From assembly GCF_003044305.1 (NCBI RefSeq), contig NZ_PZOX01000005.1, positions 195,493 to 259,492 of the forward strand: a DNA stretch of 64,000 nt, read 5' to 3'. Position 1 is the first letter of the stretch. Each line of letters starts with the position of its first letter. The notes under the pieces were generated by a model that was not told the DNA's origin, did not search any database, and worked only from the letters and a program-made list of their open reading frames with translations. Below are positions 43,289 to 63,600 of the stretch, piece by piece. The position numbers were made by a program, and so were the translations under genes. Source of the DNA: Vitiosangium sp. GDMCC 1.1324 (lineage in GTDB: Bacteria; Myxococcota; Myxococcia; Myxococcales; Myxococcaceae).

Positions 43289-43447
43289 GGGAGCGGCGAC
43301 TCCTCCTGACTCGAAACGCTAGCACGGCGGTAGCGTCGCGCCGCCGTGGGCTTGGGGCCGAAGCCGGGGGCGGCGCACACCGAAACCCCTCCGGAAAGGG
43401 TGCAGCTCGGCCCCCGGCTCCGGCTCCAACTTGTTGAGGCCCCTGCC

Positions 43448-44298: not shown

Positions 44299-44310
44299 GA
44301 GCGCGCTCCC

Positions 44311-44724: not shown

Positions 44725-44732
44725 GGTGCACC

Positions 44733-45911: not shown

Positions 45912-45961
45912 GGAAGGCTCGTGGGAGTGAGGGAAGTGAAAAGGAGGTTGCGGCGGCGGAG

Positions 45962-48102: not shown

Positions 48103-48516
48103 TTGTTCCCGCGATGGGGACGCAGCACGGCGATGCGGGGCTGCCCGACTCAAGGCCTCTCACTCGCCCCCGGCACGATGCGCCTCGGACAGCCTCGAGT
48201 TGGCCAGCACCACGGGCAGCACGCGCACCAGGCCCTCCTCAACGGCCAGCCTATCGACTACGTGGAGAAGGCCGAGGCGGAGGCGAAGCGTGTGCGCGAG
48301 AAGCTCATGGGCGTGACGCGGCGGCACGCCCTCTGGGTGCAGTCGTCGCTCGTTTTCATGAAGCCAAAGCTCAGGGTGAAGTTTCAGCCGCGCAATGTGG
48401 CGGCGCTCACCGACGAGATGCTGCTGCCATTCCTTCGGCAGAAGCCTCAGAAGCTCGGGCCTTACGAGTTGGAGGAGCTTGTCCAAGCCGCACAGCGGGA
48501 GGAGACGTGGGAGTAG
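48103..48516 (+). CDS. Hypothetical protein, possibly a truncated remnant.
   Basis: A 137-aa ORF lies between the kinase cluster and cas6. I see no recognisable motifs. Confidence 0.2.
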   Translation: MFPRWGRSTAMRGCPTQGLSLAPGTMRLGQPRVGQHHGQHAHQALLNGQPIDYVEKAEAEAKRVREKLMGVTRRHALWVQSSLVFMKPKLRVKFQPRNVAALTDEMLLPFLRQKPQKLGPYELEELVQAAQREETWE

Positions 48517-48680
48517 CCCCGCGCCGGGCTGACCGCGCCGCTGCTGGGCGTTGGCGCTCCGAACGATGGCAGCACGGCGCCAAGCACGCTGGAGCTTCGT
48601 ACGCGCGCCGTGCCCGCGAGCGCCTCCGACGGGAAATGGTACTGCGGGAGCCCGTACGTGAATGACCTCGCTGGGGGCTT

Positions 48681-49388
48681 CTACCGGACCGACGCCAGCG
48701 GATTGAACGGGGGCCTCGGGCTGCACCGAGGCGGCGCAGGCGATAGACCCCCTCCTTTTTCGGACGGCATTTCATACTCAAGGCCCTGTCCGTCCCGAAC
48801 CTCCTCGTGTCGGGTGGGAAGGAAGAGCCCACAGCCCAGGTGACGGCGCCCACCCAGTCCCTGCGTTTGGAGGCGCAGGGAGTCCTCTGGCGCGAGGCCT
48901 CCCACCGTGAGGGCAAAGCCCACGACCTTTCTCCCCGCGATGGACAGGATGCGCCGTCGGCCCAGGGTCAGCGTCCCCTCGCAGCGCAGTTCCCTCAGGA
49001 ACTTGCGCGTGGAGAGCTCGAAGGTGGCGGCGTCCAACGCGTGCTTGAAGGTGACGAGCCGAGCGGACAGCGAGGGGGCTGCCGCCAGGGGGTGGATCTC
49101 AGGCCTTCCCAGGCGGACTTCCCGGCCCGCGAGGACGAGTGCACTGCACGCGAGCGGTAGGAAGAATGCGAGGGAATCCGCTGGACAGCGCAGACGCAGC
49201 GCGCCTCTTCCCAGGTGGAGGACCTGGGCATCGGCTCTCGTGCCACGCAGGGTGAAGACACCGACGTCATGGCGCTCGTGCAGCCCAGGAAGCCGACGGG
49301 AGAGTGCCGAGAACAGCAAGTAACCGTGATCGAGCGGCACCGGGCCGCCGCGCACGGGAAACAGAATATCGATGACAGGCGAAGTCAT
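48681..49388 (-). CDS. cas6: Cas6 crRNA-processing endoribonuclease (type III-associated).
   Basis: MTSPVIDILFPVRGGPVPLDHGYLLFSAL... has a C-terminal Gly-rich loop GLGGRRHLGCGLF (GhGxxxxxGhG). It overlaps the cmr6 stop by ATGA. It is the last gene of the cmr operon. Confidence 0.6.
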   Translation of the reverse strand: MTSPVIDILFPVRGGPVPLDHGYLLFSALSRRLPGLHERHDVGVFTLRGTRADAQVLHLGRGALRLRCPADSLAFFLPLACSALVLAGREVRLGRPEIHPLAAAPSLSARLVTFKHALDAATFELSTRKFLRELRCEGTLTLGRRRILSIAGRKVVGFALTVGGLAPEDSLRLQTQGLGGRRHLGCGLFLPTRHEEVRDGQGLEYEMPSEKGGGLSPAPPRCSPRPPFNPLASVR

Positions 49389-50512
49389 GCACGAAGCCTC
49401 GTGAGGAGCTCTTCGAGCCGTTGCTGCTCCTCGGGACGCTTGAGGTTCAGGTACTTCTTGAGGAGGCGCGCCGCCTCGAGCCGCTCCGGCTCCGTCAACG
49501 CCAGCAGTCGATTCACCCATTGCTGCTCCACCTGCTGGAACTGCTGTCGCTGGCCCACGGTGCGCGCTTTCTGCTCCTCCAACCAGGTCTTCAGTTCCAT
49601 CACGGCCGGAGTCTCCAGACTCTTGCCGGGTTGGAGGCCCGGTGTCTCCGGAACGAGCCGCCCGTACCCGGTCGCGGTCTTTCCTCCCAGGCCCCAGGAC
49701 TCCAACGCCTCGCCCACGTAACGGCCCGCCCGCTCCAGCAGCACTCGCTCGCCCCTCGCCTCCAGTACCACCAGGAAGCGATTGCCCGGCGCCACCGTCA
49801 AGAATGACACGGGGTTGGGATCGTCGAAGTCCACGGGCCATTCCCCGCCCCCGCTCTCGTAATACCCACGCTGATGCACGGTGAGCACGTCTCGCGCCAA
49901 CATCGGCCCACTCCCCTTCTCCGGCGGGATCCACAGCGCATCGTGGAAGGTCACCTCCCCCTGGCTGCCTTTCTCCGATACCTCGTCCACCTCCGGAGCA
50001 CCGAACAGCCGTCGGAACACCCGGCCTGGAACCCGGCTCGGACGAGAGAGCTCCCAGGTCGTCCCACGGAAGGGCTCACGCTCGGGCTCCTCAATATCGG
50101 GATCCGGGCCATACACCGTCTGAACGTAATGGGCCGTGAGTCCCTTGAGGGCCGAGCCGGGCAGCACGGGCACTCCCCAGGTATGGTGCAGCGTCAGCCC
50201 GACTCCGGTGGCCGACGAGGTGCCGTGCCCCACGAGGATCCGGCTCTCCGCCCGTACGATGAAGCAGAGGGTGTCTGGACCCTGGAAGGATTCCTTCCAA
50301 CGGCGATAGGCCTGTGCATAGCGAGGCGGCTCGCGGCACCGGGACAGAAGCTCCAGCCATCGAGTCCGAAGTTCCAGCCACCGCTTGCGCTCGACGGGGT
50401 CTTCTCGCAACAGGGCCAGGGGCGCACACCGGGTGTACCCCAGGCCCACGTGGCTCGGCACCTGCCCGGGGGTCTCCGGGCACCGGTCCTCACCGTCCGC
50501 CTTCAGCCACAT
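49385..50512 (-). CDS. cmr6: Cmr6 (Cas7-group RAMP).
   Basis: ILVGHGTSSATGVGLTLHHTWGVPVLPGSALKGLTAHYV is the RAMP G-rich loop GSALKG. Start choice among in-frame Met codons is uncertain. Confidence 0.6.
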   Translation of the reverse strand: MWLKADGEDRCPETPGQVPSHVGLGYTRCAPLALLREDPVERKRWLELRTRWLELLSRCREPPRYAQAYRRWKESFQGPDTLCFIVRAESRILVGHGTSSATGVGLTLHHTWGVPVLPGSALKGLTAHYVQTVYGPDPDIEEPEREPFRGTTWELSRPSRVPGRVFRRLFGAPEVDEVSEKGSQGEVTFHDALWIPPEKGSGPMLARDVLTVHQRGYYESGGGEWPVDFDDPNPVSFLTVAPGNRFLVVLEARGERVLLERAGRYVGEALESWGLGGKTATGYGRLVPETPGLQPGKSLETPAVMELKTWLEEQKARTVGQRQQFQQVEQQWVNRLLALTEPERLEAARLLKKYLNLKRPEEQQRLEELLTRLRA

Positions 50513-50903
50513 GGCTTCGCTCCTCCTGCGTGAAGGTGGCCTGCACCGCGCGCCGGAACCACACCAACAGCTGAAGCAACTCACGGGTCGCCAGCATGTA
50601 GTCGCTCATCTCGAGCCGCCGCACCGCATCTGGAAGCTTCACGCCCGCCGTCCGGGGAGGCCCGGGGAGCAGTGCGTCGGCGAGATCCTCAAGGAGCCGT
50701 CCCACGGGCTTGTCGTGCTTCGCCTTCTCGGACTCCAGCTCACGCTCGAGGAAGGCCAGCGCCGCTGCCAGGCCATTGCGCAGCACGGCGGCGCCGAGGG
50801 AGTGGACGTGCATCGCATAGTCCGCGCGCTCGCCCGGGGGCACGCGCATGACCCGCTCGTAGGCGTGGAGGGCTCGCGTCTGCTGCCGCGTCCGGTGGGT
50901 CAT
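50490..50903 (-). CDS. cmr5: Cmr5 small subunit.
   Basis: MTHRTRQQTRALHAYERVM...HSLGAAVLRNGLAAALAFLERE is a 137-aa all-alpha protein. It shows an ATGA overlap with the cmr4 stop and a GGAGG-like ribosome-binding site. Confidence 0.6.
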   Translation of the reverse strand: MTHRTRQQTRALHAYERVMRVPPGERADYAMHVHSLGAAVLRNGLAAALAFLERELESEKAKHDKPVGRLLEDLADALLPGPPRTAGVKLPDAVRRLEMSDYMLATRELLQLLVWFRRAVQATFTQEERSHVAEGGR

Positions 50904-51811
50904 GGCCGTGCCTCCCTCTGAGCGCCGGGCCATGCCGCCAGCCGGCACCTGCCCCGGCCCACGGTGGCCTTGCCACCCAGTTGCAACAGCGTTGTCCCCT
51001 TCAGCGCCCGGTCGAGCACCTCCGTCGCGCTGAGATCGGTGCCCCGGCGCAAGCTACGTCCCGCGGCCAGCACCCCTACCAGGAGGGTCTCCGCGGGCAG
51101 GCTCTCTTCCTGCCAGAGCGCTCCCTGCACCACCGTGCCGGTCCCGGGGTCGATTCGCACGCGCGTCTCCACCTGGGTGGCCGTCTCCAGGAGGAAGCTC
51201 ATCGTCTCGTCGTCTACCACGGCGAAGCGCTCGCGCAGCCCTTCCTCTTCCTCGGGCCAGGTCCGAGCGAGGAAGCGTGCCCAGGCTTCCACCGCGGGCT
51301 CCACCTGGGTGTCCAGGTCCAGATCCTCCAGCAAAAGCCTGCGGTGCTTGGGCGACACGGTGATGTTGCCCTCCCCCACCCGTGCGCCAGTCACGGGCAG
51401 CCGCTTCATGCGCCCCGGTAAGCCCTCGAGGCCCGTCAGGTCCCTGCGCGCCAGTTCCAGCAGGAGCGGCGAGGACACCCACGCGAAGGCGCCCAGGAAG
51501 CTGCGCACGGGCAGCGCCACCAGCCGCGCATCTCCCACCACCAGCGCACCGGCATGGTCTCCTTCCCGGGTCTCGTCTCCCGCCGCGCCGCTCGTCTCGC
51601 GCAGAGGGCCGAAGAGGGCCTCCCGCTCCTCCGAAGGCAGGTCCCGGTGTGCATCGCGCAGCACGCCCTTGAGCGAAGAACCGGGGACGAAGGGGATGTT
51701 CGTCGCACGCAACCTCGCGATGGGTAGGTCGATGAGGCCCACGCTCTGCCCCGTCCCCGCGTGCAGGGGAGAGAGGGCGTGCAGCAGGTAGGGCCGGGTC
51801 TCCATGCTCAT
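50900..51811 (-). CDS. cmr4: Cmr4 (Cas7 backbone subunit).
   Basis: MSMETRPYLLHALSPLHAGTGQSVGLIDLPIARLRATNIPFVPGSSLKGVLRDAH shows the Cmr4 thumb and G-rich loop. It overlaps the cmr3 stop by ATGA. Confidence 0.7.
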   Translation of the reverse strand: MSMETRPYLLHALSPLHAGTGQSVGLIDLPIARLRATNIPFVPGSSLKGVLRDAHRDLPSEEREALFGPLRETSGAAGDETREGDHAGALVVGDARLVALPVRSFLGAFAWVSSPLLLELARRDLTGLEGLPGRMKRLPVTGARVGEGNITVSPKHRRLLLEDLDLDTQVEPAVEAWARFLARTWPEEEEGLRERFAVVDDETMSFLLETATQVETRVRIDPGTGTVVQGALWQEESLPAETLLVGVLAAGRSLRRGTDLSATEVLDRALKGTTLLQLGGKATVGRGRCRLAAWPGAQREARP

Positions 51812-52983
51812 GTGTTCATCTCCTCGGGGTTCCAATGCCCGGGCAGTACCCGCCCCAGGCCCTCCTCGCGGCCACTGCCCCAGGGGGCCAGCCAGAGAGT
51901 GCTCAGCGCGGTGAAGGGAAGTCCGTCCACCCGCTCGAAGAAATAGACCGAGCCCGCGGGCACCAGCCGCCGGGTGGCGCGAGCCCTCCGCTGGACCATG
52001 TCCCAGGTGGACAGTTCCAGGGGCCGGTTCACCAGTGCCGCGCGGAGCACCACCTGCCCTTCGACTCCCGGCAAGGTGCCGACCCACGCGGGACATCCCT
52101 CGTACTCGGCACGCTCCAGACCATCCGGCAGCCAGCCGCGTTGGAATTGCGCGGGCGTGGCCAGAATCAATCGCAGCCCGGGCGAGCGCTCCGGCAGTCC
52201 CCTGGGCGCCGCGAAGAGCCCGGGGGACACACGCTCCGCCAGCGTCAACCGCCGCTTGCCACCCAGTCCCAGCGGTCCCCAGGGAAAGCCCGGAGCCTCG
52301 GTGGGCAGCGTGCACTCCAGGCCCAGGGCCCACTCGCGGGCTCCGTTACCGAGGGGTTCGCGGCAGAGCATCTCCAGGATGGGCGTCTGGTACAGCATGC
52401 CGGGCTCCGCGGTCTGGGTGTCGGGGTTCAAGGTCACCCGCACATCGACACGCCAGGGAGGACCGGACTGGCCGCGAGATTTTGGAACCTCGCCGCGCAG
52501 CCAGCCGCTCAGGGCCTCCTCCGTCCAGAACGGCGGCAGGGGCCTCGGCTTGCCCGGCGGGAGCACGGGGCGCCACAGGGCCTCCAGCGCCGCATCGTCC
52601 TCCGTGCCCAGGGTCGCGACGCCGCGCGAAGGCCGCCGGGGGAGAAGTCGCTGGAGACCTCCGTCCACGGCCAGGGCATCCGCCGACACGGGCCACATGC
52701 GGTGCTCGGGGGCGAACTCCTCCCCGAGGGGCCGCAGGAGGGCCAGCACGGCTCCGAGGGCAACTTCCCGGGTCTCCCGCTCCCACTGTTCGGGAGATAG
52801 GGTGCGCGAGGAGCGGGCCATGAGGGACTGGCCCCAGGCCGCCCGCAGCGCGCCACGAATCGTGGAGGGGGGAGGCCAGGGGTGGGAATGGCTCCGCCCG
52901 ACATCGCTGGTGTACCAGCCACGGCCGTCCTTGCAGAACAGCCCATCACGCGGCAACAGGGCCAGGCACGCCGTCGTGCTCAT
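51808..52983 (-). CDS. cmr3: Cmr3 (Cas5-group RAMP).
   Basis: The N-terminal motif is MSTTACLALLPRDGLFCKDGRGW (L.PrD.lf.rDgRpf). It is 391 aa and overlaps the cmr2 stop. Confidence 0.6.
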   Translation of the reverse strand: MSTTACLALLPRDGLFCKDGRGWYTSDVGRSHSHPWPPPSTIRGALRAAWGQSLMARSSRTLSPEQWERETREVALGAVLALLRPLGEEFAPEHRMWPVSADALAVDGGLQRLLPRRPSRGVATLGTEDDAALEALWRPVLPPGKPRPLPPFWTEEALSGWLRGEVPKSRGQSGPPWRVDVRVTLNPDTQTAEPGMLYQTPILEMLCREPLGNGAREWALGLECTLPTEAPGFPWGPLGLGGKRRLTLAERVSPGLFAAPRGLPERSPGLRLILATPAQFQRGWLPDGLERAEYEGCPAWVGTLPGVEGQVVLRAALVNRPLELSTWDMVQRRARATRRLVPAGSVYFFERVDGLPFTALSTLWLAPWGSGREEGLGRVLPGHWNPEEMNT

Positions 52984-54803
52984 GCTGCACCTCGGGTATC
53001 ACCCCGCGGCCGGAGGGTGGCGCGCGAGAGCAACTCCGCCAGGAACACGCGCTCCGCCCAGGCCTCCACCTGGACGTGGAGCTCCTCCAGGGTTCCTTCT
53101 TCCTTCAAGTCCAATCCCGCCTGCTGGGGTGTGAGTCCCGCCCCGGGAGTACCTGCCTCCACGCGGGCCAGCACCCGCCGCACCTCACCCACCAGCATGG
53201 GCCGCCAACGCGCCTCGTCCTGAGGCGAACCAGCGTGGCGGGGAATGCGCCGCAGGGCCGTGGACACATCACGGACCTTCGTCATGGGCAGCGTGCCCGC
53301 CTTCCGCAGGGTGATGGTGTCCTCGAGCGCCTTCACGGGCCCGTCGGGCCAGCGCTGCCGCCAGGCGTGCTCACGGCCGGAGCGCAGCCGTGCCAGGAGC
53401 GCGAAACCATTCCGGTCCTCGCCCTTGGCCAACTGCTCCGCGCGCCGCCCGAGGTCCAGCAAATCCCCGAGGCTCTCCAGGACATGGCCCACCCCCAGCC
53501 CCACCGAGAGCGTGGGCGCGTTCACTCCCGCCCGGCTCTGGAGCTCCTGCTCCATGGCAGCGGCGAAGGCCCGCGACAACTCGGCGGCGCAGCTCAGCGC
53601 GTCCGGAAGACAGACGAAACCCAGCACGTCATCTCCACCGGCGTAGACCAGCACGCCCCGGTGCCGCTCCTCGAGGATGCGCCGGGCCTCGGTGGCGAAG
53701 TCGGAGAGCGTGCGAGACAACGACTGGTGCGCGGCGGGGCCATGAGAGGCCAGGGCATGAAGCGTCTCTCCCATCTTGTCGCCGTCCGCCACGAGGCAGG
53801 CCACATAGGGGAAGGGCTCACCCAGGGTGGCCAGCAAGGGCCGCACGAAGTCCTGGCCGAAGCGCTCCGCGTCCTGGCGCCCCATTCCCTGCTCCTCCAG
53901 GTACGTGCTCCACCGGCCGGGCAGCAGGAGCTGTGCGTCGAAGGGGAAATCACGCACCCACTCTCGGTCCCCCGCCTGGACTGGCGTCAGGACTCCTTGG
54001 TCGCGCAGCCGCACACACTCCCGGCGGAGCCTCTCCATCGCCGGGGGCTGGGTGTGCTTCGCGAGCGCCGTATAGGCGGCGAGGCCGATGGTCGGGACGG
54101 GGATGAACTGCCCGGGCTGTCCGCCCGTGCGCTTGAGCAGACCGATGGCGTCCAGTTCCTCACGCTGGCCGATACGGAAGCGGCGCCAGTCGCCCCCCTC
54201 ACGCCTCCCCTCCCGCAGCACGGACTCGCGTGCACCATCCAGGCTGGACTTGTGGCGGCCGCCCCGCTGGTGTTGCCACGGAGAGAATGGGCGCAGCCGC
54301 TTGCGCTCGGCCAGCGCGGCTTCCGCGAGACGTAAGGCCCTGGGGTACTCCTCCGGCGTGGTGAAGGGACACCAGGCGGCATGGAACTCCAGGAGGGTGT
54401 CCAGTTGCTCCTGGGCGGTGCCGAGAGCGCCGGGGTCCACGAGCTGGGGATGCTTGCGCCAGACCTCCAGGCCCCATTCGCGCAGCCGTGTGCGCGCCGC
54501 CTCCCGCGCAGCCCGCGCCACCTCGCGAGGCTCCCCCTGCCGCACGAGCACCAAGAGCTTGTTGGGGACGCTGGGGGCGGCCTCCTGCCCATCCACGAAG
54601 GCGGGGAAGATGAGCTCGGCCCGGAGCCGCTGGGCGGTGCGGGCGGCCTCGAGGCTCAGCTCGCTGAGCACATGGCTGCCGAACCACAGGTCCCGGGTGC
54701 GCCGGGCCTGGGCGATGAAATCCTGCACGGGACCGAGGCTCATGAGGAGCAGGTGCGCGGTGCTCACGTCGACTCCTTCACGCCACTGAAACCCTTCACC
54801 CAC
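52980..54803 (-). CDS. cmr2: Cmr2/Cas10 short form, lacking an HD domain but with an intact GGDD cyclase motif.
   Basis: The N-terminus reads LLLMSLGPVQDFIAQARRTRDLWFGSHVLSELS, as in the Cmr2 N-terminus. The Palm2 motif VLVYAGGDDVLGFV is present. At 607 aa there is no room for an HD nuclease domain. Confidence 0.75.
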   Translation of the reverse strand: MGEGFQWREGVDVSTAHLLLMSLGPVQDFIAQARRTRDLWFGSHVLSELSLEAARTAQRLRAELIFPAFVDGQEAAPSVPNKLLVLVRQGEPREVARAAREAARTRLREWGLEVWRKHPQLVDPGALGTAQEQLDTLLEFHAAWCPFTTPEEYPRALRLAEAALAERKRLRPFSPWQHQRGGRHKSSLDGARESVLREGRREGGDWRRFRIGQREELDAIGLLKRTGGQPGQFIPVPTIGLAAYTALAKHTQPPAMERLRRECVRLRDQGVLTPVQAGDREWVRDFPFDAQLLLPGRWSTYLEEQGMGRQDAERFGQDFVRPLLATLGEPFPYVACLVADGDKMGETLHALASHGPAAHQSLSRTLSDFATEARRILEERHRGVLVYAGGDDVLGFVCLPDALSCAAELSRAFAAAMEQELQSRAGVNAPTLSVGLGVGHVLESLGDLLDLGRRAEQLAKGEDRNGFALLARLRSGREHAWRQRWPDGPVKALEDTITLRKAGTLPMTKVRDVSTALRRIPRHAGSPQDEARWRPMLVGEVRRVLARVEAGTPGAGLTPQQAGLDLKEEGTLEELHVQVEAWAERVFLAELLSRATLRPRGDTRGAA

Positions 54804-56092
54804 CCCAGAAACGCTTCCTCGAGGTTCTCCGCGACGAGGGGCGCGTAGAGCGCGGTATCCCCCGGTGCCAGGAGCCGGTCGAAGGGCGCCGCGGAACCCC
54901 GGACGGGCTCACGCGCCTTGCCCATCAGCACGACCTGGCCCTTCTCGGGCCACGCGCGGCGAAGCCACAGCGCGATGGGGACGAAGGAGCCATCCGCCAG
55001 GGGCATGGCCTTGACGATCAACGGAGAAGCGAACCGCTCGCGGACCCGCGTTCCATCATGCCAGCGCAGCTCGACGTCCGGAGGTTCGGCATAGGGCGCT
55101 CCCCTGCCCCCCGGCGTCTTGGGCCGGGCGGTGCGTTGGAAGCGAATGGCCAGAGGCAGGCCGAACCCCGCGCGAGGCCAGGCCACGGCCTTGCCGGCGC
55201 AGGCGGGCCGGGGCGGGTGGGCCCAGGAAGTCCCCTTCGGAGGGGAAAACAACTGGCGGACCTTGTCGGCCTCCGGCCAGTAGGAGCGTCCCGGTCGCTC
55301 TGGCCTGGGCTCCCGGGCGGTTGCACTGCGGCCCTCGCCCTTCTTCCCGGGCGAGGCCACACGCGAGCCCTGGGGAAGACGTCCCTCGCCCTGGCGGAAC
55401 TCCCGCAGCCAGCCCAGCGCCACCTCCCAGGCATCATCGGCGCCCGGCCGCGAGGCGCCGTAGAGCAATCGAGCCCCCCGCAACAGGGGCACCTGTTTGG
55501 CCCCCCCCGGAGGGAGCGCGCCGAACAGGGGCAGCTCCGGGAAGAGCCGCGACCACTCCTCGCGCGTGGGCTGCCGAGGCAACCACGCCGCCGCGTCGTC
55601 CACGACGGTGAGCGCACCGAGCCCCCGGCGGGTGCGACTTCCATATCCCCCCCAGAGCACCCAGGCCCGGAGAGCGCCTTCCACCTCGGAGAAGCGCTCC
55701 GCCGGGGCGAGGAGGTGGAGGTGGAAACACAGCGAGGAGTGCCAGCGTGGGGCGAGGGGCTTGCTCGCGACCCAGAGGGCATAGGCGCCCCGGGCTCTCT
55801 GATCGATGCGCCCATCGTCCCGGGACACGGTTCGCGGCTCCACCTCCACACGCACTTCCACGCGAGAGCGCGTCCCCTGCTCCTTGCCCATCCCACCCCA
55901 GAGCTCGCGCTCCCGGCGGGCCAGCTCCGCGGGCGTGGCGCACGCGTGCCCATGGAGCGCCCGCCACCAGAAGCGCAGGTGGCCTCGAATCGACGGCGCG
56001 CGAAGGGGGTCCAGCTCGTCCAATTCCCGGGCGGCGGACGAGCCACCGAGGATGGGCGTGATCGTCTTCAGCCGCACCCGCAGCGACTTCAT
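54764..56092 (-). CDS. cmr1: Cmr1 (Cas7-group RAMP).
   Basis: The start is MKSLRVRLKTITPILGGSSAARELDE...PSIRGHLRFWWRAL after a GGAGG ribosome-binding site. This is the classic Cmr1 RAMP start. The 773-aa ORF 54764..57085 is an upstream frame extension. Confidence 0.65.
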   Translation of the reverse strand: MKSLRVRLKTITPILGGSSAARELDELDPLRAPSIRGHLRFWWRALHGHACATPAELARRERELWGGMGKEQGTRSRVEVRVEVEPRTVSRDDGRIDQRARGAYALWVASKPLAPRWHSSLCFHLHLLAPAERFSEVEGALRAWVLWGGYGSRTRRGLGALTVVDDAAAWLPRQPTREEWSRLFPELPLFGALPPGGAKQVPLLRGARLLYGASRPGADDAWEVALGWLREFRQGEGRLPQGSRVASPGKKGEGRSATAREPRPERPGRSYWPEADKVRQLFSPPKGTSWAHPPRPACAGKAVAWPRAGFGLPLAIRFQRTARPKTPGGRGAPYAEPPDVELRWHDGTRVRERFASPLIVKAMPLADGSFVPIALWLRRAWPEKGQVVLMGKAREPVRGSAAPFDRLLAPGDTALYAPLVAENLEEAFLGWVKGFSGVKEST

Positions 56093-56151
56093 CGGAGGCC
56101 CACCCGTGAGACGCCGGGCCCGCGGCGCCGGGTCTGGCAGGGCGTCGTTGC

Positions 56152-57963
56152 TCACGTGGACCGGCTCCTTCCCGGGGCGTCGAGCAAGGTGCGGTGTTGG
56201 TCGAACAGCCCCTCGAAGAGCAGCCGCAGCTCGTCCTGGATTTGCTCCCGAGAGCACTCGTCCCAGCGGCGGAGCGCGAGCAGCAGCGCACGCACCCAGC
56301 CGGGCTCCTTCGTGCGAACCAGCTCCCTGCGGTAATAGAGGGCCAGTGTCAGGGTGTCGTTCTTGTCCAGCCCTTCCAACTTCACGCGCAGTTGGCTGTA
56401 GCTCTCGTGGGGATCCGGGAAGGTGGGCAGCCCCGCGACCTCGATGAACACCCGCTCCAACGCCGGCTGCTCCTCCCTGGCCAGAGCGGCCGTGGAGAAC
56501 CGGCAAGCATGGAAGAGCCAGATGAGGTAGCGCCGCAACCGCCGCTCGGGAAGGGTCTGGATGGGGCGCTCCGGCTCGAAGACGCGAACGCTCTCCAACG
56601 CGTTCCAGATGATGTTCGCGAGGGCGTGTGATGGAGGCTGGGCGGTCGCGGCCCGATGGCTCCGCCGCCAGGCCAATGCCACCTCGACGGAGACCACGTC
56701 CGCGTCGTAATCCACCGCCTCGAGCACCCACCCCGTGCGGCCACTGCCGCTGTAGCTGTAGGAGGTCAGGCCTCGCTGCTGGACATGGTAGGCCTCGTGG
56801 ACGAGGAGCAGCCGGATGCACTCGTCCCAATCTTCTTTCGAGCCCAGGCGCTGGCGCAGGGCCCGGAAGCCCTCCAGCAGGTCGACGGGGAACTTCCAGG
56901 TTCCGGCCTGATAGCGGAACAGGGGCGTCCTCTCCGTCGCGGGCGTGGTGTCGATTTGACTGTCCAGGAGGACCCGCCCCCCGAGCCGCTCGACCAGTGT
57001 CTGTTGCTCGGGTTGGCGCAGCCACTCGACCAACTGCTGGTGGATGCCGATCACCTTCTTGAGCTCTTCCTGGATCTCCTGCCACTGCTTGGAGGTGAGC
57101 GTCTCCTCCCGTGCTGCGGCCAGACGGCGCCGAGGGCTGATCTGATGGACGGCGAGATACTGGCCCTGCTCGCGATTGAAGTGGTGCAACCCCAGGGGGT
57201 GCTGGGTCTGGGCGTTGATGGCGGTCCCCAGCGCGGCGGCGAGGCTGCCGGGACAGTCCATGGCCAGGAGCACCGATCCGGCGCCCTCCAGCCGCTCGTG
57301 GAGGGTGTCGAGCACGGTGCGGAATTGCTCCACCGCCCGCGAGACCTCGCCAGGGTTCTGCAGGGCCCGCTCCGAGGTGCCTCGTACGGGCCGCAGGCAG
57401 ACCGTGGCCAGGATCTCCATGGGGTGGCGTGCCTTGAACTGCGCGAGCGCCGTGTCACGAATGGGGTTGGTGACCTCGACGATGAGCGCCACGTGCCCAC
57501 GGCCCTCCTGCCGCGCGGCGGGAAGACCCTCGACGGTGAAGTAGGGCTCCGGGGTGGAGGGATGGGATCGGTCCGCCATGAGCGACCAGGAACCATCCTC
57601 CCGCGACTGCTGATAGACATACAGCCGCCGGCGCGGCAGACACCACGCCAGGTGCAGCATCAACACCAGGGGCGCGCACCCGAACAGGTGGACGGGCAGG
57701 TCGAGCCCCAGCTCGCGCTCCCGGGCCAGGAGCGCCTCGGCGAACCGCTCGTTCTCATCGAAGGCCCAGCCCCAGTCCTGCTCCCGCTGGGCACGGACGA
57801 GCGTGTCCTTGTTGTACTCATGCAATACGCAGGACGCGACGTCCCGGTCCCCCTCGAAGCCACTGTGCTTCAACGCCTCGCGCGCGGTGTTCTCGGCCAC
57901 GGGGCGGTCGTGCTCGTAGCGAAGGATGAGGGCCTGGGTCCTGGGTGTCAGGGCAATGACCAT
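56152..57963 (-). CDS. Large type III-associated accessory protein of unknown function. It is a candidate cyclic-nucleotide sensor/effector (SAVED/CARF-like region is a hypothesis) with a C-terminal HExxH...E zincin-like motif.
   Basis: The 603-aa ORF ends 60 nt upstream of cmr1 on the same strand and directly follows the SMODS nucleotidyltransferase gene. The C-terminal region contains LLVHEAYHVQQRG...WVLEAVDYD. There is no signal peptide. Domain assignment is not alignment-verified. Confidence 0.45.
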   Translation of the reverse strand: MVIALTPRTQALILRYEHDRPVAENTAREALKHSGFEGDRDVASCVLHEYNKDTLVRAQREQDWGWAFDENERFAEALLARERELGLDLPVHLFGCAPLVLMLHLAWCLPRRRLYVYQQSREDGSWSLMADRSHPSTPEPYFTVEGLPAARQEGRGHVALIVEVTNPIRDTALAQFKARHPMEILATVCLRPVRGTSERALQNPGEVSRAVEQFRTVLDTLHERLEGAGSVLLAMDCPGSLAAALGTAINAQTQHPLGLHHFNREQGQYLAVHQISPRRRLAAAREETLTSKQWQEIQEELKKVIGIHQQLVEWLRQPEQQTLVERLGGRVLLDSQIDTTPATERTPLFRYQAGTWKFPVDLLEGFRALRQRLGSKEDWDECIRLLLVHEAYHVQQRGLTSYSYSGSGRTGWVLEAVDYDADVVSVEVALAWRRSHRAATAQPPSHALANIIWNALESVRVFEPERPIQTLPERRLRRYLIWLFHACRFSTAALAREEQPALERVFIEVAGLPTFPDPHESYSQLRVKLEGLDKNDTLTLALYYRRELVRTKEPGWVRALLLALRRWDECSREQIQDELRLLFEGLFDQHRTLLDAPGRSRST

Positions 57964-58002
57964 GGGAAGGCTCCTGAAGAGGATGGGACCGCGAGGACGG
58001 AC

Positions 58003-58889
58003 TCAGGGCCCCCGCTGCCGGTAGAACTCGCCGAAGAGCTCCCGCAGGCGCCCGTGGGCCCGCGGAGGATCCGAGTCGCTCTCGTCCCTCGCGAGCCGCA
58101 CCTGTCTCGCCGCGCTCGCCAGCAACTGATGGGCCGCCGTCTTCTGGTTGGAGGTCATCCGCTCATCCACGGCGGGGCCCAGCCCGGCGGGATCCGGACA
58201 CGTCCCCAGCACCTTCTGGCTCAGGTGGGAGAAAAGCCTCTCCAGCCCGTCGAGGTAGTCCCCGGGGGGCGAGGGAAACGCGCTGTAGCTCATCACCTCC
58301 AGATGGAACGAGCCCAGGGGGCTGGACGGGTGATGTCGGTTCCAATGCTTGACGGCCTTGAGGAGCGGCTTGAGCTTCTTGCCTGCGGCCTCGTTGGCCT
58401 CCGTGCTCAGAGTCTGGTGGATGCGGGGATTGGTGGAGATCCATCGCCCCGTTTCCCGCTCGGGGATGAGGAAGGTGTCCCGCCCCGGCACCGAGAACGC
58501 GGGCACGACGTCGAACTCGTTTCCCGAGTCCGTGAAGCCGATGTGCACCGAGTGCTGCTGGAGGATCGGAAGGCTCTTGTTGGACCACTTGTCGTGAAGC
58601 GCCTGCTGGACCTGCTTGAGCGCATCATCCGCCGTCAGCCCCCCTGCGAGGTGAATCGGGGTGGATGAGAGGACATCTCCCCCAGCACGACGAAGATGTC
58701 GATGTCATGCAGTGGCCGGATAGCGGTGTGGCGGCTGTAGGAACCGGAGAGAAAGTCCGTCTTCGTGTTGAGCCGCTTCCGCAAGGCCTCGCGCACCAGG
58801 GTGTGCTGCCGGCTGACCTCGTCCCGCTGTCCCTGCGTCAATTCCAGGGACTGGATGAACTTCTCCAGGCCCTCACGCACGCTCCACAT
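58003..58889 (-). pseudogene. SMODS-type (CBASS cGAS/DncV-like minimal) nucleotidyltransferase interrupted by a frameshift at a G6 homopolymer. This is either a pseudogene or a sequencing indel.
   Basis: The N-fragment (58635..58889) carries the SMODS signature GSYSRHTAIRPLHDIDIFVVL. The C-fragment (58003..58548) continues with ...ADDALKQVQQALHDKWSN...SGNEFDVVPAF, the second acidic motif. The two fragments are out of frame around CAGGGGGGCTGA. One extra or missing G restores a single ~295-aa ORF. Confidence 0.6.
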
Positions 58890-58968
58890 GTCCGCTCCTT
58901 GGATTCTTCCGTATCCAAGAAGAAGGACGTCAAAAGCGGCGGCGGACCATCGCGGTCCGGTGCTTTTT

Positions 58969-59808
58969 TCAAGGCAGGAGGCTCAGGACGTCCGCCATGG
59001 AGGGGCGTTCCGGGGCCTTCTTGGCCAGCAGGCGAGCCAGCAGCGAGCGAAGGGCCACGGGCGCCACCCCCTCCAGGAGCTCCAGCGGGGGCGGCCGGGC
59101 CACATGACAGAACATCAGGCTTTGCTGCGCCTCGGCGATGAAGGGCGGGCGGCCCGTGAGCAACTGGAATCCGAGAATTCCGAGCGAGTAGACATCGGCC
59201 CGGTCATCCACTGTCTTGGAACGAGTCCACTGCTCGGGGGCCCTGTACTCCCCGGTCCCTAGGAGCGCGCTCCCCGCCGTCGAGACCGGGAGTGCGGCGA
59301 GCCCGCTCCCGGTGGCGAGCCTCTTGGCGAGCCCGAGGTCGGCGAGCTGGACCTTCCACGCCCCCGGCTCCCGCTGGGAGACCAGGATGTTGGCGGGCTT
59401 CAGGTCCCGGTGAACGAGGCCCCGCGCATGCAACAGGGCCAGGACCTCCGCCAGTTGGCGGAGCACCTGGACGCAGTCGCGAACCGCGAGGCGGCCTCCC
59501 TCATGGACGAGCGCATGGTGGAGATCTTCCGGTTGCCACGCCAGGACCATGAAGGGACGGCCCTCCAGGAGCACTCCGGATGCCTGGGCACGGACCAGGT
59601 GCGGGTGCCGGAGCTCCTGGAGCGTCCGCGCCTCATTGAGGAAGCGGGCCACCACCTCGGGGTGGAGGCACCACTCCGGACTCAACACCTTCACCGCTAC
59701 GAACTCGCCCGAAGTGGCGTGCCGCCCCGCGTAGACCTCACTCGTGGCGCCCACCGCCACACAGCGCACGATGAGGTACTCACCCACGCATGTGCCAGCT
59801 GCCAGCAT
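58969..59808 (-). CDS. Small Ser/Thr protein kinase (catalytic domain only).
   Basis: YLIVRCVAVGATSEVYAG...AVKVL...HRDLKPANILV...ADLGLA...GTGEYRAPE. The in-frame N-terminal extension to 60216 is probably not translated, because the ECF sigma gene occupies that region in another frame. Confidence 0.55.
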   Translation of the reverse strand: MLAAGTCVGEYLIVRCVAVGATSEVYAGRHATSGEFVAVKVLSPEWCLHPEVVARFLNEARTLQELRHPHLVRAQASGVLLEGRPFMVLAWQPEDLHHALVHEGGRLAVRDCVQVLRQLAEVLALLHARGLVHRDLKPANILVSQREPGAWKVQLADLGLAKRLATGSGLAALPVSTAGSALLGTGEYRAPEQWTRSKTVDDRADVYSLGILGFQLLTGRPPFIAEAQQSLMFCHVARPPPLELLEGVAPVALRSLLARLLAKKAPERPSMADVLSLLP

Positions 59809-59819
59809 CGAGGGCTCCG

Positions 59820-60626
59820 TCAGCTCGAGGCGGAAGGCTGAAGGGCGCGCAGCTTCTCCAGCCAGTGCAGCAGCCCCCGAAGCTCCTCGGCGCACTCCGG
59901 ATAGCCCGCGGCGAAGGCCTCGGGCTCCAGGGGTCTCCCCTCCTCGCGCCGTCTGAAATAGGCGGCCAGGGCCGCATCCACCCGGTTGCGGGAGAGGACC
60001 GCATCGGGATTCTCCTCGGACTCCTCTTCCGCCGTGCCTTCCATGCGCGCACGGAGGGCCCGCAGACCCCGCTGCAGCAGCGACTCCACGGCTTCCTTGG
60101 AGCGGCCGAGTCGCTGCGCGATGCCTCCCACCGTCGAGTCCTGGAGGTAGTAGAGCGACAGGGCTTCGCGCTGGGCGTCGGGGAGCTCGTAGAAGTGCGT
60201 CAACAATCGACGCCACTCCTCCTGGTGGGAGGAGACCTGGCTCGGGCTGCGCTGGGGAGCGGGCAGGCCCTGGGCTTCGGAGCTGTCCAGGGGGAGCGCT
60301 CCCCCGTCATCCCGCTTCTGGCTGCCCGCCTTGCGTAGCATGTCCACCCAGCGCGAGTGGAGCACCTGCTCCAGCCAGACCCGCCATTCTCCCTCGGCCG
60401 TGCCCCGGAAGGAGGCGAAGCGCTGGAACGCCCCCAGCGCCGCCTCCTGGGCGACATCCGAGGGCCGAATTCCTCCCGGCGGCGAGCGCCCAATGCGCCG
60501 GGCCGCCCACCTGTCCAGATCGGACTGGCTGCGGCGGAGCAATTCCTCCCAGGCGCCCTGCTCCCCCTCTCGCACCCGGTGCAGCAGCGCCTCGATGGAC
60601 AACTCAGACAGGATGGATGAGCTCAT
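59820..60626 (-). CDS. ECF-type sigma-70 family factor with a C-terminal extension.
   Basis: Region 2 reads LLRRSQSDLDRWAARRIG...DVAQEAALGAFQRF. Region 4 reads PDAQREALSLYYLQDSTVGGIAQRLGRSKEAVESLLQRGLRALR. An ATGA overlap with the upstream kinase-STAND gene is present. Confidence 0.6.
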   Translation of the reverse strand: MSSSILSELSIEALLHRVREGEQGAWEELLRRSQSDLDRWAARRIGRSPPGGIRPSDVAQEAALGAFQRFASFRGTAEGEWRVWLEQVLHSRWVDMLRKAGSQKRDDGGALPLDSSEAQGLPAPQRSPSQVSSHQEEWRRLLTHFYELPDAQREALSLYYLQDSTVGGIAQRLGRSKEAVESLLQRGLRALRARMEGTAEEESEENPDAVLSRNRVDAALAAYFRRREEGRPLEPEAFAAGYPECAEELRGLLHWLEKLRALQPSASS

Positions 60627-63600
60627 GGGCAGCCCTCGAACACGAAGCGTATATCTTCTCCATCCCTGTCCTTGAACTCCCTGGCCAGGGCGCATCGCGC
60701 GGTGTGCAGGCGCGTGGCCTGTTCCCCGTCGCCCATGAGCGCCTCCTGTCCGGCCACAGCGCGAAGCCACACCAGGGCCTGGCGTTTGCCCAGGGGCTCC
60801 CCTTCCCTCAACCGCTCGCCCAATTCCACCGCCTCCTGGTAGTTCCGCTCCGCCTCCCCATACTGGCCCCGGGCGGCCTGGAACGAGGCCACGTCCACGA
60901 GGACCCAGGCGAGCACCCACCGGCTGTATTGATCCCCCGCCGGAGCATCATGGAAGCTGCTCCGTGCCAGGCGCAACGCCCGGTCGAGGAACCCCCGCGC
61001 CGCGTCTGGCTCGCCCGCCGCACGCGCCACGTTCCCGCGCATGCCGAGCACCTGGGCGAGGAGGGCTTTGTTATAGGACTCGCCGTTCTGTTCGTGGAGC
61101 CGGGTGGCCTTGTCCAGGAGGTCGGCGGCGGCGTTCCACCTCCCCGCCGCGAGCTCGCACTCGGCCAGCTCGGAGTCACTGACCGCCAGGGTGCGCCGGT
61201 CGTCCACCGGGTCATCCGTCGCCACCTCGGGACGCTCCAGTCCCCGGACGGCTTCGGCGAAATGCTCGCAGGCCAGGTCGAGGTGCCCCCGCGCCTGTTC
61301 CACCTTCCCGCGCTTGGAGTGCTCGAGGGCCACCAGCCGCGACAGCCTCCCATCGTCAGGCCGATCGGCGAGGGCCGCGCGCAGTTCCTCTCGAGCCTCG
61401 TCCAGGAACAGGCTGGCTCGTGCCAGGGTTCCATCATGGAAGGCGAGGTCCGCCTGCCGATGGATGAAACGGACGGCCACGCGCCGCACTTCGAGACTCT
61501 CGCGTTGCTGGGGCGTCAGCCCGGCCAGGGACTTACGAAAGCCTTCCAACGTGGGCTCGCGCAACCGCAGCGTGTACGGCAGCCAGCTGAGCCTCCAGTC
61601 CAGGTCCCCGGCGAACTCGTCCATCGTGTCGACGTACTGCCGCAGGGAGGCCTCCGCGAGCCGACGCTCGTGGCTCGCGAGGGCCGCGTAGAAGACGATG
61701 GCCAGGAGGGCCAGCCCCCCCGCGGCGGCGAGCAGCCCCCGGGTGAGCGTGCGCCGCCGCTCCAACCGCCGCGCCGCCTCCAGGAAGCGCTCCACTTCGG
61801 GGCTCTCTCGCGGGCTCCCGGCGCGGCGGGCGCGGGCAGGCGAAGCGCCGTCCCGGTAGTGGGTGAGCAGGGTGCCCGTGGGCAGTCCCTCCACCGGACA
61901 GCCCGCCTGGTGCCAGACATGCGCCGCGGCCTCCAGGTCCGCGTGGCGCTCCAGCCGCGTCCGCTCCTCCTCAATCCACGAGGCAATGGAGCGCACCCGG
62001 TACAGCAGCAGCTCGTGCGCCAGCTCGACGCGCTGCTCCGTGGCACTAGCTCCGCCCGACAGAAGCAACAACCGCAACCCCGCCGGAGCCTCCCGCGGGG
62101 TGCCATGGGACAGCCCGGAGAGCCGCAGCAGCACCTCCTCGGCCCGCGCATCGTCTCCCCCCGCGGCGAGCACCTCGCGCCGCGAGCGGGGGCGGCGGGT
62201 GTCGGGCACGCCCCGGCCCGTCCGCACCAGGGACAGAATCATCCCCCTGGCACGCTCGCGCCCCTCCTCTCCCAGACCGTCGAGCAGCGCCTCGGCCTGC
62301 TGGGCCAGGGCTCCCCCCACTCCCCCGAGCCGCTCGTAGTGCGCGTGGGTCAGTGGCGCGCCGCCGCTCAACGCCCACAGCGCCCGCAGCGCGTGCCCGA
62401 GCAGCGGCAGGCGGCCCGCCTCGCCCCGCGCGTCCTGCACCATACGCTCGGCCAGACCTTCGCCCAACCGGAGCCCCGCGCCGCGGGCCAGGCCCTGGAT
62501 GACCTGGGCCAGCGCGGCGGGCTCCATGGGCAGCAGGGGGAAGCGCGCGGCGTGCGGGAGGTGACGCGCCAGGGCCGGCACCTGCTCGATGCGATGCAGG
62601 AAGTCGGCGCGCACGCAGGTCAGCAGCCGCACCGGCGAGCCGGGGGCCTCGAGCGCGGCGCCCAGCAGCGCGTCCACCCATGGGCACTCCGCCGCGCCGA
62701 GCGTGAACAGCTCCTCCAGGGGCTCGAGCACCAGCAACAGGCGGCGCCCCTCGGGCGCATGGGCCGTGGCGAGGTCACGAAGGGCCCCGGCGTCCGCCCG
62801 CAGGGCGCGCTCCACCGTCTCCGCGCCCTCCCCCGCTCCCAGGCGAAGGGGGCCCGAGGCGAGCGCCCGGGCCAGGGCGCGGATCGGCTCGTCCCCCGGG
62901 CGAAGGCACACCACGCACCACTCCGGCGCCCGGGCGAGCCGGGGCAACAGGCCCGCCTGGAGCAACGAGGACTTGCCCACCCCGCTGGGCCCCTCCACCT
63001 GGAGCCACCGCCGCGGCCCCGTCTGGAGCTCTCCGAGCAGCGCGGACAGGCTCCGCAGCTCCTCGTCACGGCCGAAGAACAGCTCCGCCTGCGCCTCGGT
63101 GAAGGAGGCCAGTCCGGGAACGGGGCACGTCTCCGGATCGTCCTCCCACGCCCGGCCGAGCATGTCCTGGCAGCGCCGCATCGCCGGCCGCCGTGAGGGC
63201 TCCTTGGCGAGCATGGAGGCGATGAAGGCGCACAGGCCGCCGGGCAGCGAGGGGGCGAGCTCGCGCAGCGGGGGCGGCTCCTCGTGCACATGCGCGGAGA
63301 GGACCTCGACGGGGTCCTCGGACACGAAGGGCGTGCGGCCCGCGAGCAACTCGTAGAGCACCACGCCCAGGGCATAGACGTCCGCGCGGGAGTCCACGCG
63401 GGCGGCGCTCCGGAACTGCTCCGGCGCCATGTACGGGTAGGTGCCGATGAAGGCCGACTCGTGGGTATGGGCCAGGGTGGCGCCGAGCGCGTCCACCTCC
63501 ACGGGCGGCAGCTTGGCGATGCCAAAGTCCAGCAGCTTGACGCGGTGGCCAGCAAGGGCGCCTTCCCGGGGACACAGGAAGACGTTCTCCGGCTTCAGGT

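Follow-up and report, generated by a model that had tools for sequence, protein, structure and literature searches.

Hybrids of CBASS and type III-B CRISPR systems that include a sigma factor, a kinase and a SAVED-protease have already been published in Myxococcota (Steens 2024; Bernal-Bernal 2018, 2024). In the H. ochraceum hybrid, a Cmr1-6 operon stands beside a SAVED-fused protease, a sigma factor and a Ser/Thr kinase; its effector, SAVED-CHAT, is activated by cA3, and the same work noted related Myxococcota CBASS operons with cyclases, a kinase and a sigma-70 factor (Steens et al.). The DdvS/DdvA CBASS-CRISPR4 island of M. xanthus has an ECF sigma factor beside CBASS genes and a cmr operon of type III-B in which an accessory gene lies a few bases upstream of cmr1, the cmr genes overlap and a Cas6 is terminal; the island is driven by the ECF sigma, with a polycistronic transcript running from the accessory gene through cmr and cas6 to the array (PMC6061681, PMC11506125). 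Two further relatives are CalpL-CalpT-CalpS, a type III-associated set that encodes an ECF-type sigma factor together with a Lon protease carrying a cOA-sensing SAVED domain, and type I CBASS, whose two-gene core pairs a CdnD-like CD-NTase with a SAVED effector nuclease of the Cap4/Cap5 type. Because such hybrids are published in related bacteria, the Vitiosangium locus described here is an uncharacterised variant and not a new kind of system. An earlier note on this DNA had held that the arrangement was not described in this form, a claim that falls with these reports and with the cataloguing of the large kinase by Shah et al.

We analysed a 64-kb stretch of DNA from Vitiosangium sp. GDMCC 1.1324 (the window), in which the locus comprises the following features, given in the direction of transcription.

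60623..63964, minus strand: large Ser/Thr kinase-nSTAND1 NTPase-TPR protein (Pfam Pkinase 2.7e-43, nSTAND1 9e-85, TPR)
59820..60626, minus strand: ECF-type sigma factor, 268 aa (Pfam Sigma70_r2, Sigma70_r4, Sigma70_ECF)
58969..59808, minus strand: small stand-alone Ser/Thr kinase, 279 aa (Pfam Pkinase 3e-38)
58925..58953, minus strand: bipartite promoter-like motif GCGATG-N18-CGTCC, 35 nt upstream of the CD-NTase ATG
58003..58889, minus strand: CdnD-like CD-NTase (SMODS), frameshifted (Pfam SMODS 1.4e-22; PADLOC cyclase 7.8e-78)
56152..57963, minus strand: SAVED + zincin-like HExxH protein, 603 aa (Pfam SAVED 2.6e-16; PADLOC SAVED_peptidaseM48 3.2e-171)
54764..56155, minus strand: cmr1 (RAMP and TIGR01894; likely GTG start 56155, alternative ATG 56092)
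52980..54767, minus strand: cas10/cmr2 (Cmr2_N, Cas10-Cmr2_palm2; TIGR02577 2.9e-55)
51808..52983, minus strand: cmr3 (Pfam Cas_Cmr3 2.3e-38)
50900..51811, minus strand: cmr4 (TIGR02580 1.2e-60)
50490..50903, minus strand: cmr5 (Pfam Cas_Cmr5 1.6e-21)
49385..50512, minus strand: cmr6 (TIGR01898 2.5e-35)
48681..49388, minus strand: cas6, Cmx6 type (TIGR02807 3.1e-66)

The nine genes between 48681 and 58889 (CD-NTase, SAVED protein, Cmr1-6 and Cas6) lie where the earlier note had placed them and are what it had taken them to be, each with a significant match to Pfam, NCBIfam or PADLOC models, the SMODS gene and the 603-aa protein included. The extent that it gave the unit was too short: the functional unit runs upstream past 63964 and takes in a kinase-sigma-kinase module and a promoter-like motif that had been missed. 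A 39-nt gap separates the CD-NTase from the SAVED gene, and from there to cas6 successive genes overlap by 4 nt or 23 nt. The junctions cmr2/3, cmr3/4, cmr4/5 and cmr6/cas6 are ATGA overlaps, cmr1/cmr2 is a GTGA overlap and cmr5/6 overlap by 23 nt. The SAVED/cmr1 junction is also GTGA provided that cmr1 starts at GTG 56155, which has a ribosome-binding site (GGAAGGAG) and is the identical start called in A. violaceum, where it likewise overlaps the stop codon of the SAVED gene. No CARF nuclease was found in the locus when the operon proteins were searched with family models, in agreement with the earlier note, nor does the window's operon encode a second CARF or SAVED effector besides the 603-aa protein. 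Pfam and PADLOC gave no E1/E2, JAB, HORMA, CHAT or caspase match among the operon proteins; the adjacent SAVED effector and the absence of Cap2/Cap3/HORMA genes are as in type I CBASS.

Compared with the H. ochraceum hybrid, the locus has an HExxH zincin-like domain in place of the CHAT effector, has no PCaspase or PCi, retains a CD-NTase in the same operon as Cmr and counts a large kinase-nSTAND-TPR protein in its conserved set. Its CBASS part is SAVED-zincin, whereas that of the M. xanthus island is CHAT-SAVED and E1/E2/JAB type II, and the M. xanthus island has an array whereas the window has none. We also considered DdvS/DdvA-type regulation and rejected it: an ECF sigma is there, but its neighbours are two kinases instead of a transmembrane TPR-CHAT anti-sigma, and the motif is GCGAYG-N18-CGTCY instead of GTAA-N16-CGT. 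CalpL carries a Lon protease where this locus has a zincin, and no CalpT-like anti-sigma was recognised in the window locus, kinases standing in its place; we hypothesise that a sigma regulator may be cleaved here. Unlike type I CBASS with Cap4/Cap5, the pair comprises a putative metalloprotease and a frameshifted cyclase, flanked by a sigma/kinase module on one side and a Cmr operon on the other.

We put at about 0.6 the probability of the reading in which this ~15-kb, 12-gene locus is a cyclic-oligoadenylate defence island of myxobacteria whose Cas10 and CD-NTase feed one cOA-activated SAVED metalloprotease under sigma/kinase control. The signal layer would then have an innate generator, the CdnD-like CD-NTase, and as an alternative to it an adaptive crRNA-guided one, the Cmr complex with its HD-less Cas10 and intact cyclase site. 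Both would act on a single receptor, the SAVED-zincin protein, in which oligoadenylate binding would switch on the HExxH metalloprotease. The ligand is probably cA3, judging from the closest characterised relatives of the cyclase and of the SAVED domain.

The 603-aa protein, called uncharacterised in the earlier note, belongs to a catalogued PADLOC family that combines SAVED with HExxH (M48 is the label that PADLOC uses for the HExxH domain). Its SAVED sensor spans residues about 10-280 and the zincin-like HExxH domain residues about 289-603. In the family alignment H389, E390, H393 and E415 are invariant, corresponding to HExxH and a downstream Glu as metal ligands, and HExxH, E, D and D are near-invariant across 148 family representatives. 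This composition suggests a putative cOA-activated metalloprotease effector. The SAVED fold is nearest to Cap5 and SAVED-CHAT, and the best PDB sequence match is H. ochraceum SAVED-CHAT (8tl0); the top fold matches include cGAMP- and c-diAMP-binding Cap5, and the sequence does not reveal the ligand specificity. Elsewhere in the family, CHAT-SAVED-zincin triple fusions exist.

The CD-NTase retains the catalytic motifs GS...DIDIF...D, and the repaired protein matches NCBIfam CBASS_cyclase_b (1.8e-60, score 204.9 against a cut-off of 200). The nearest solved chains are 6p8u/6p82 (2e-35), which we take to be P. aeruginosa CdnD, a cAAA synthase (Ye et al. 2020). What the earlier note had seen as SMODS fragments is indeed SMODS, broken in the sequence as given by one -1 frameshift, a single base missing in the G6 run 58639-58644, at a site within a loop of variable length. 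A single homopolymer indel of this kind could be a sequencing error, which leaves the suggestion that one of the two messenger sources is decaying a weak one.

The type III-B cassette is complete by Pfam, NCBIfam and PADLOC (Cas10/Cmr2 plus Cmr1, Cmr3, Cmr4, Cmr5 and Cmr6). As the earlier note had read it, Cas10 lacks the HD nuclease domain: the 595-aa protein has no HD match and opens with Cmr2_N at residue ~6, directly at the N-terminus. The cyclase motif YAGGDDVLGF is present; YAGGDDVL is conserved in all related loci, whose Cas10s are all HD-less with GGDD intact. Cmr4 keeps the backbone RNase Asp in an IDLPIAR motif that is likewise conserved in all related loci.

The missing array was also confirmed. 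Neither a CRISPR array nor a remnant of a repeat turned up in the 64 kb with tandem-repeat and direct-repeat finders, a k-mer periodicity scan or searches with the repeat of related loci. In orthologous loci the array sits after cas6. The last ~36 codons of the window's cas6 (below about 48790) are not homologous to the orthologues, and in alignment with A. violaceum homology is lost a few codons before the stop of that gene, where a degenerate 5-repeat array follows. The end of homology near 48790 is likely to be the breakpoint of an event in which the native stop codon was lost together with the leader and the array. Hyalangium versicolor also has no adjacent array, yet its operon is full-length although identity is only 53-75%. 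In the Vitiosangium window both inputs look compromised, the cognate array being deleted and the CD-NTase frameshifted, so that activity would depend either on crRNAs made from an array at another place in the genome or on the frameshift being a sequencing error; function in this strain is uncertain.

The control layer would consist of the kinase-nSTAND-TPR protein, the ECF sigma and the small Ser/Thr kinase. The large kinase, whose gene may extend at its 5' end outside the window, gives a PADLOC match to C3a189 'kinase' (1.4e-151), which corresponds to cluster 189 among the type III accessory families of Shah et al. Its gene opens the conserved trio and, in nearly all related loci, stands upstream of SAVED. 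The sigma factor, whose start coordinate was taken from its translation, has an ATG that overlaps the stop codon of the large kinase gene (ATGA), a C-terminal extension of ~75 aa and orthologues in the same position in related loci. The small kinase, also a conserved partner in these loci, has VAVK, HRDLKPAN, DLG and APE motifs on reading of its sequence. The promoter-like motif is preceded by AAAAAGCAC in the window. Across 15 sequences (14 related loci and the window), GCGAYG-N18-CGTCY occurs in 20 instances with identical spacing, each located 30-42 nt before the start codon of a CD-NTase or SAVED gene, and in Stigmatella it is also found directly upstream of cmr1. Since a loose form of the pattern has 4 matches in the whole window, about the chance expectation, the evidence is positional conservation and not rarity. 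The ECF sigma most likely drives transcription from this element, and the presence of the conserved element once in the window, upstream of the CD-NTase, would give one transcript carrying CD-NTase, SAVED, cmr1-6 and cas6. Foremost among candidate substrates of the protease would be the co-conserved sigma and kinases.

Comparison of 22 close-homologue loci bears on whether the two systems are coupled or merely neighbours. In 14 of them, spanning Vitiosangium, Archangium, Hyalangium, Pyxidicoccus, Myxococcus, Corallococcus and Stigmatella, cmr1-6 lies immediately downstream of the SAVED-zincin gene. Three loci (L007, L012 and Stigmatella L029/L030) have SAVED-zincin and Cmr with no CD-NTase, so that Cas10 is the only cyclase encoded beside the receptor. 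These observations fit the earlier note's view of a CBASS/type III hybrid rather than chance neighbours. The trio accompanies SAVED-zincin without Cmr in 8/22 loci (L004, L006, L008, L010, L016, L032-L034); the effector can therefore do without Cmr. An Archangium primigenium locus has the trio and SAVED-zincin with neither CD-NTase nor Cmr. The trio itself is present in 20/22 loci, and it is this kinase-sigma-kinase set, not either cyclase, that is the constant partner of SAVED-zincin. Among distant relatives, Sorangium and a Polyangia MAG place the trio, a CD-NTase and a 581-aa SAVED protein beside other type III modules.

The same loci can be read as two independent systems on one island, a complete type I CBASS and a type III-B module acting by Cmr4 RNA cleavage only, co-transcribed and co-regulated with no second-messenger cross-talk. 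The CD-NTase and SAVED-zincin pair does occur without Cmr (L004, L008, L010, L016, L033, L034), and the slot after the SAVED-zincin gene can hold Cap4-like SAVED nucleases and further cyclases, as expected of an insertion hot-spot; a hot-spot taking up defence modules would also produce the interleaving of Cmr-linked and Cmr-less loci in a quick NJ tree. The M. xanthus island, too, juxtaposes CBASS and Cmr, and its authors claim no cross-talk. Yet the three loci without a CD-NTase keep SAVED-zincin with Cmr, SAVED and cmr1 are translationally coupled, and in Polyangia and Sorangium the pairing is found again with other type III subtypes. Moreover, every Cas10 is HD-less while its GGDD has long been conserved, which is hard to explain if there is no receptor for the cyclase product. 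We regard two independent systems as unlikely.

Slightly less improbable, though still doubtful, is a recently inactivated relic in which the array was lost with the cas6 3' end, the CD-NTase is frameshifted, neither signal source works and the intact ORFs have simply not yet decayed. The absence of any repeat in 64 kb, the loss of A. violaceum homology just short of the cas6 stop, where only a degenerate array stands, and a frameshift that is real in the given sequence all fit it, as does decay elsewhere (L014 is frameshifted in both cyclase and SAVED, and the cmr2, cmr3 and cas6 matches of L005 are truncated). Against this, the remaining eleven ORFs are intact, as are the overlaps, the promoter-like motif and every catalytic motif, and a 1-nt change in a G6 homopolymer is a typical sequencing error. 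The diverged but full-length Hyalangium versicolor operon speaks for purifying selection even where no array lies nearby, and type III-B modules are commonly served by crRNAs of arrays elsewhere in the genome. The least probable of the alternatives, in our view, is that the HExxH domain is not a protease and serves as a metal-dependent hydrolase of another substrate or as a scaffold for filament formation.

Within the preferred reading of two cyclases feeding one metalloprotease, we tentatively consider a further step, possible but not the likelier case: SAVED-zincin might be a cOA-gated switch and not a suicide effector, cleaving the sigma C-terminal extension or one kinase, so that a CD-NTase or Cas10 signal would become a transcriptional and phospho-signalling programme feeding back on the island's GCGAYG-N18-CGTCY promoters. 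If true, the switch would parallel CalpL-CalpT-CalpS, with a metalloprotease as its protease and two inputs that can replace each other.

It is still largely unanswered whether, in nature, CBASS and type III CRISPR are merely adjacent or share messengers and effectors; NucC, TIR-SAVED and SAVED-CHAT are the known cases. The loci described here form a natural series with the same receptor and trio and a cyclase only, Cas10 only, both or neither, which makes the question directly testable. The practical value of the window itself is lower because both inputs look damaged, and the orthologous loci of A. violaceum or Corallococcus macrosporus are better experimental subjects. With about 300 clusters at 50% identity, the SAVED-zincin family contributes an as yet uncharacterised metalloprotease domain linked to cOA, and it suggests that kinases and ECF sigma factors control defence operons in Myxococcota.

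Third-position GC traces an unbroken minus-strand gene run through the ~70% G+C window, from beyond 63964 down to 48681. All nine genes named in the earlier note, from the SMODS cyclase to cas6, are real and each has a family match, but the interval proposed there missed three tightly packed upstream genes encoding a kinase-nSTAND1-TPR protein, an ECF sigma factor and a small Ser/Thr kinase (the trio).

Features of the operon in the window
58925-58953, upstream of the cyclase gene: the one copy of the motif GCGAYG-N18-CGTCY
58889..58003, minus strand: CD-NTase/SMODS
57963..56152, minus strand: 603-aa SAVED protein
between the SAVED gene and cas6, minus strand: cmr1, cas10/cmr2, cmr3, cmr4, cmr5, cmr6
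49388..48681, minus strand: cas6, Cmx6-type

The tight packing ascribed to all nine genes holds from the SAVED gene to cas6, where the cmr1-to-cas6 junctions are overlaps of 4 nt each except for cmr5/cmr6 (23 nt), but not at the operon head, where a 39-nt gap separates the end of the CD-NTase gene from the SAVED start. The most likely start of cmr1 is GTG 56155, which overlaps the SAVED stop codon (GTGA), is preceded by a GGAAGGAG ribosome-binding site and is the same GTG as the start called for Archangium violaceum cmr1; SAVED is therefore coupled in translation to the Cmr genes.

A scan for conventional sigma-70 promoters found none, and the operon showed no convincing terminator on its own strand. 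Near the operon head the sole terminator-like match is an opposite-strand one, at the position of a conserved bipartite motif, AAAAAGCAC..GCGAYG-N18-CGTCY. Every CD-NTase copy has this motif 30-42 nt ahead of its start codon, and in many loci the SAVED gene has one too, which makes 20 instances of identical spacing. In Stigmatella the motif stands directly upstream of cmr1. CGTC is a typical -10 element of ECF promoters, and we infer that the neighbouring ECF sigma recognises the motif; the published promoter of DdvS, the ECF sigma of the Myxococcus xanthus CBASS-CRISPR4 island, is GTAA-N16-CGT (Bernal-Bernal et al.). There are no further copies lower down the operon in the window, and a single copy without a convincing terminator fits one transcription unit running from the cyclase to cas6.

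The 603-aa protein, listed earlier as unknown, matches the PADLOC effector model SAVED_peptidaseM48 at 3e-171, a label whose origin was not traced in the literature. In its AlphaFold model (pLDDT 85) the N-terminal SAVED domain superposes on Cap5 and SAVED-CHAT, and its best PDB match by sequence is Haliangium ochraceum SAVED-CHAT, a protein that cA3 activates. A fold search with the full-length protein returned SAVED matches only. The C-terminal domain was modelled separately, and its profile found nothing meaningful among PDB sequences or in Pfam at E up to 10. In an exhaustive profile search, 308 clusters at 50% identity had this HExxH domain, and HExxH and downstream Glu, Asp and Asp residues are essentially invariant among the 148 best representatives of these. 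We call the domain a putative zincin-like metallopeptidase of unassigned family and the protein SAVED-zincin; 'M48' is PADLOC's label and a tentative assignment. An alternative reading, in which the HExxH domain does not act as a protease, we consider improbable.

Most members have the architecture SAVED plus HExxH domain (~580 aa), with a subgroup of ~800 aa that is CHAT-SAVED-zincin and one JAB-SAVED-zincin member. These triple-fusion proteins (P0078, P0079, P0082, P0094, P0113 and others, ~780-820 aa; P0071, 755 aa) place two different predicted protease domains on one SAVED sensor. At L024 (8666-11098), in a MAG labelled Enterobacterales yet with 72% GC and myxobacterial-like genes, an 810-aa triple-fusion protein is encoded directly upstream of cmr1-6, and a TIR-SAVED gene then follows.

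The CD-NTase frame is split by one base missing from a G6 run (58639-58644) that sits in a loop of orthologue-variable length; adding one G gives a full-length protein with intact GS, DIDIF and D motifs. Among solved structures, chains 6p8u and 6p82 come closest to it (2e-35); we take them to be P. aeruginosa CdnD, which makes cAAA (Ye et al. 2020). Cas10 is HD-less with an intact cyclase motif, as the earlier note had it: the protein opens directly with the Cmr2_N domain and keeps YAGGDDVLGF. Cmr4 retains its catalytic Asp, and these Cas10 and Cmr4 features are the same in every related locus.

The claim that the 64 kb holds no CRISPR repeats also stands, and for repeats of every kind; the 36-nt repeat of orthologous loci is absent from the window with mismatches allowed; GTCGCGCTCGCCGTGATGCCGGAAGGCGTTGAGCAC is the repeat sequence whose relatives would mark a cognate (Cmx6-type repeat) array. 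Homology to A. violaceum stops a few codons short of the cas6 stop, near window 48790, exactly where a degenerate five-repeat array starts in A. violaceum, and the window cas6 extends ~36 further, unrelated codons. The break and the array at this position therefore indicate that the array was lost via rearrangement at the cas6 3' end. The DNA 3' of cas6 has no homology to leaders or arrays of related loci by blastn or tblastn. With the array gone and the cyclase frame broken, the window is a poor exemplar, and these losses would suit a locus that is a dead relic in this strain; with the Cas10 and Cmr4 motifs kept and the cyclase one base from full length, we rate that reading as possible, though rather unlikely.

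Directly downstream of cas6, 48103-48516 (+) and 48160-48726 (-) have coding-like GC3, with ORFs overlapping on both strands. Neither has a PADLOC match or homology to related loci, the minus-strand ORF is also without a Pfam match, and the 48103-48726 stretch may be a gene fragment carried in by the array-removing rearrangement. Below the operon, 40010-47302 (-) encodes a DUF2381 protein (40010-40957) and an HTH_31 regulator (43894-44298) and is rich in more Ser/Thr kinase genes (41063-43318, 44733-45911, 45962-47302). This gene set is not conserved beside related loci. Elsewhere in the window, long in-frame tandem repeats (20271-22299, 26925-27807, 32121-32904 and 33122-34570; periods 159, 165, 42/126 and 126 nt, up to 12.8 copies) presumably encode repeat-domain proteins, and GC dips to 0.59-0.64 between ~20 and 30 kb.

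An alignment query gathered 22 loci with close homologues of the 603-aa protein (48-84% identity) and adequate flanking sequence. The cmr1-6 genes lie directly downstream of SAVED-zincin in 14 (the window, Archangium violaceum, two Hyalangium, Pyxidicoccus, seven Myxococcus, Corallococcus macrosporus and Stigmatella) and not in the other eight. Among the Cmr-linked loci, five have a long array directly 3' of cas6, three have arrays upstream, the A. violaceum array is degenerate, and neither Hyalangium versicolor nor the window has one nearby. The trio accompanies SAVED-zincin in 20 of the 22, including an A. primigenium locus without cyclase or Cmr; of the remaining two, transposons have rearranged L007, and the upstream sequence of L006 is too short to tell. 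For the large kinase the PADLOC match is model C3a189 (1e-151), which stands for type III accessory cluster 189 in Shah et al.; the example gene of that cluster comes from Haliangium ochraceum.

Three Cmr-linked loci are without any CD-NTase: L007 (transposases upstream), L012 and Stigmatella L029/L030 (in order SAVED-zincin, a Cap4-like SAVED nuclease, the trio and cmr). There the receptor has no cyclase encoded next to it other than Cas10. Sorangium and a Polyangia MAG hold distant relatives (24-27% identity) with the same HExxH core, flanked on one side by the same trio plus a CD-NTase and on the other by a different type III module. We reject the idea that the SMODS fragments belong to an unrelated neighbouring island, since nearly every locus keeps the cyclase-SAVED pair together with the same upstream motif. 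In a rough NJ tree, loci with and without Cmr are interleaved, which implies repeated gain or loss. Such turnover could be read as two independent systems merely co-located; with Cas10 as the sole neighbouring cyclase in three loci and a different type III module beside the distant relatives, we think this unlikely.

Several loci depart from these arrangements. Tandem sets of two or three CD-NTase genes, with a motif copy for each gene, occur at L002:2217-4081, L005:6103-7943, L034:4095-9946 and L016:13085-14044, some with Cap4-like SAVED nucleases and a Cap8 match too; in L005 a mini CRISPR array of three repeats (9500-9641) separates the cyclases from the SAVED gene. The A. primigenium locus (L032, 4857-11806) has trio and SAVED-zincin without CD-NTase or Cmr nearby; its receptor is either an orphan, whose signal must come from another source, or part of a relic locus. 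L014:9022-11790 (Myxococcus sp. 1LA), with CD-NTase and SAVED-zincin each split in two frames and truncated cmr2 and cmr3 matches, is a decaying copy or a low-quality assembly. In the Polyangia MAG, an IS4-family transposase lies within the type III RAMP gene cluster (L019:16547-17884), which a Card1-type CARF gene follows.

The hybrid, earlier thought not described in this form, is already published as a concept (Steens et al.; Bernal-Bernal et al.). Steens et al. describe a myxobacterial Cmr operon with SAVED-protease, sigma factor and kinase; they also remark that in other Myxococcota the genes for related SAVED proteins belong to CBASS-like operons, which encode cyclases, a kinase and a sigma-70-like factor. 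In the M. xanthus island, which protects against phage Mx4, an ECF sigma drives the CBASS genes and a polycistronic accessory-gene-cmr-cas6-array transcript (Bernal-Bernal et al., PMC6061681, PMC11506125). A SAVED-metalloprotease is not among the type III effectors listed in the bioinformatic survey of Hoikkala et al. As far as the literature consulted goes, what is new is a zincin-type effector in this role, a CD-NTase and Cas10 both kept in the same operon, ahead of one receptor, a natural series of loci (cyclase only, Cas10 only, both, neither), and the trio with its nSTAND kinase and conserved promoter-like motif.

The best-supported model has three layers. The sigma/kinase module would govern expression of the island; a CdnD-like cyclase, or crRNA-guided Cmr through the cyclase site of its HD-less Cas10, would make a cyclic oligoadenylate, most likely cA3 by analogy with the nearest characterised relatives of cyclase and sensor; and binding of this messenger would turn SAVED-zincin into an active metalloprotease. 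For the two type III protease systems that have been characterised (CalpL-CalpT-CalpS; SAVED-CHAT, PCaspase, PCc-sigma and PCk), a sigma regulator, or a sigma factor together with a kinase, has been proposed as the target. Since the trio is the most constant neighbour, the sigma C-terminal extension and the kinases would be, by analogy, the leading candidate substrates.
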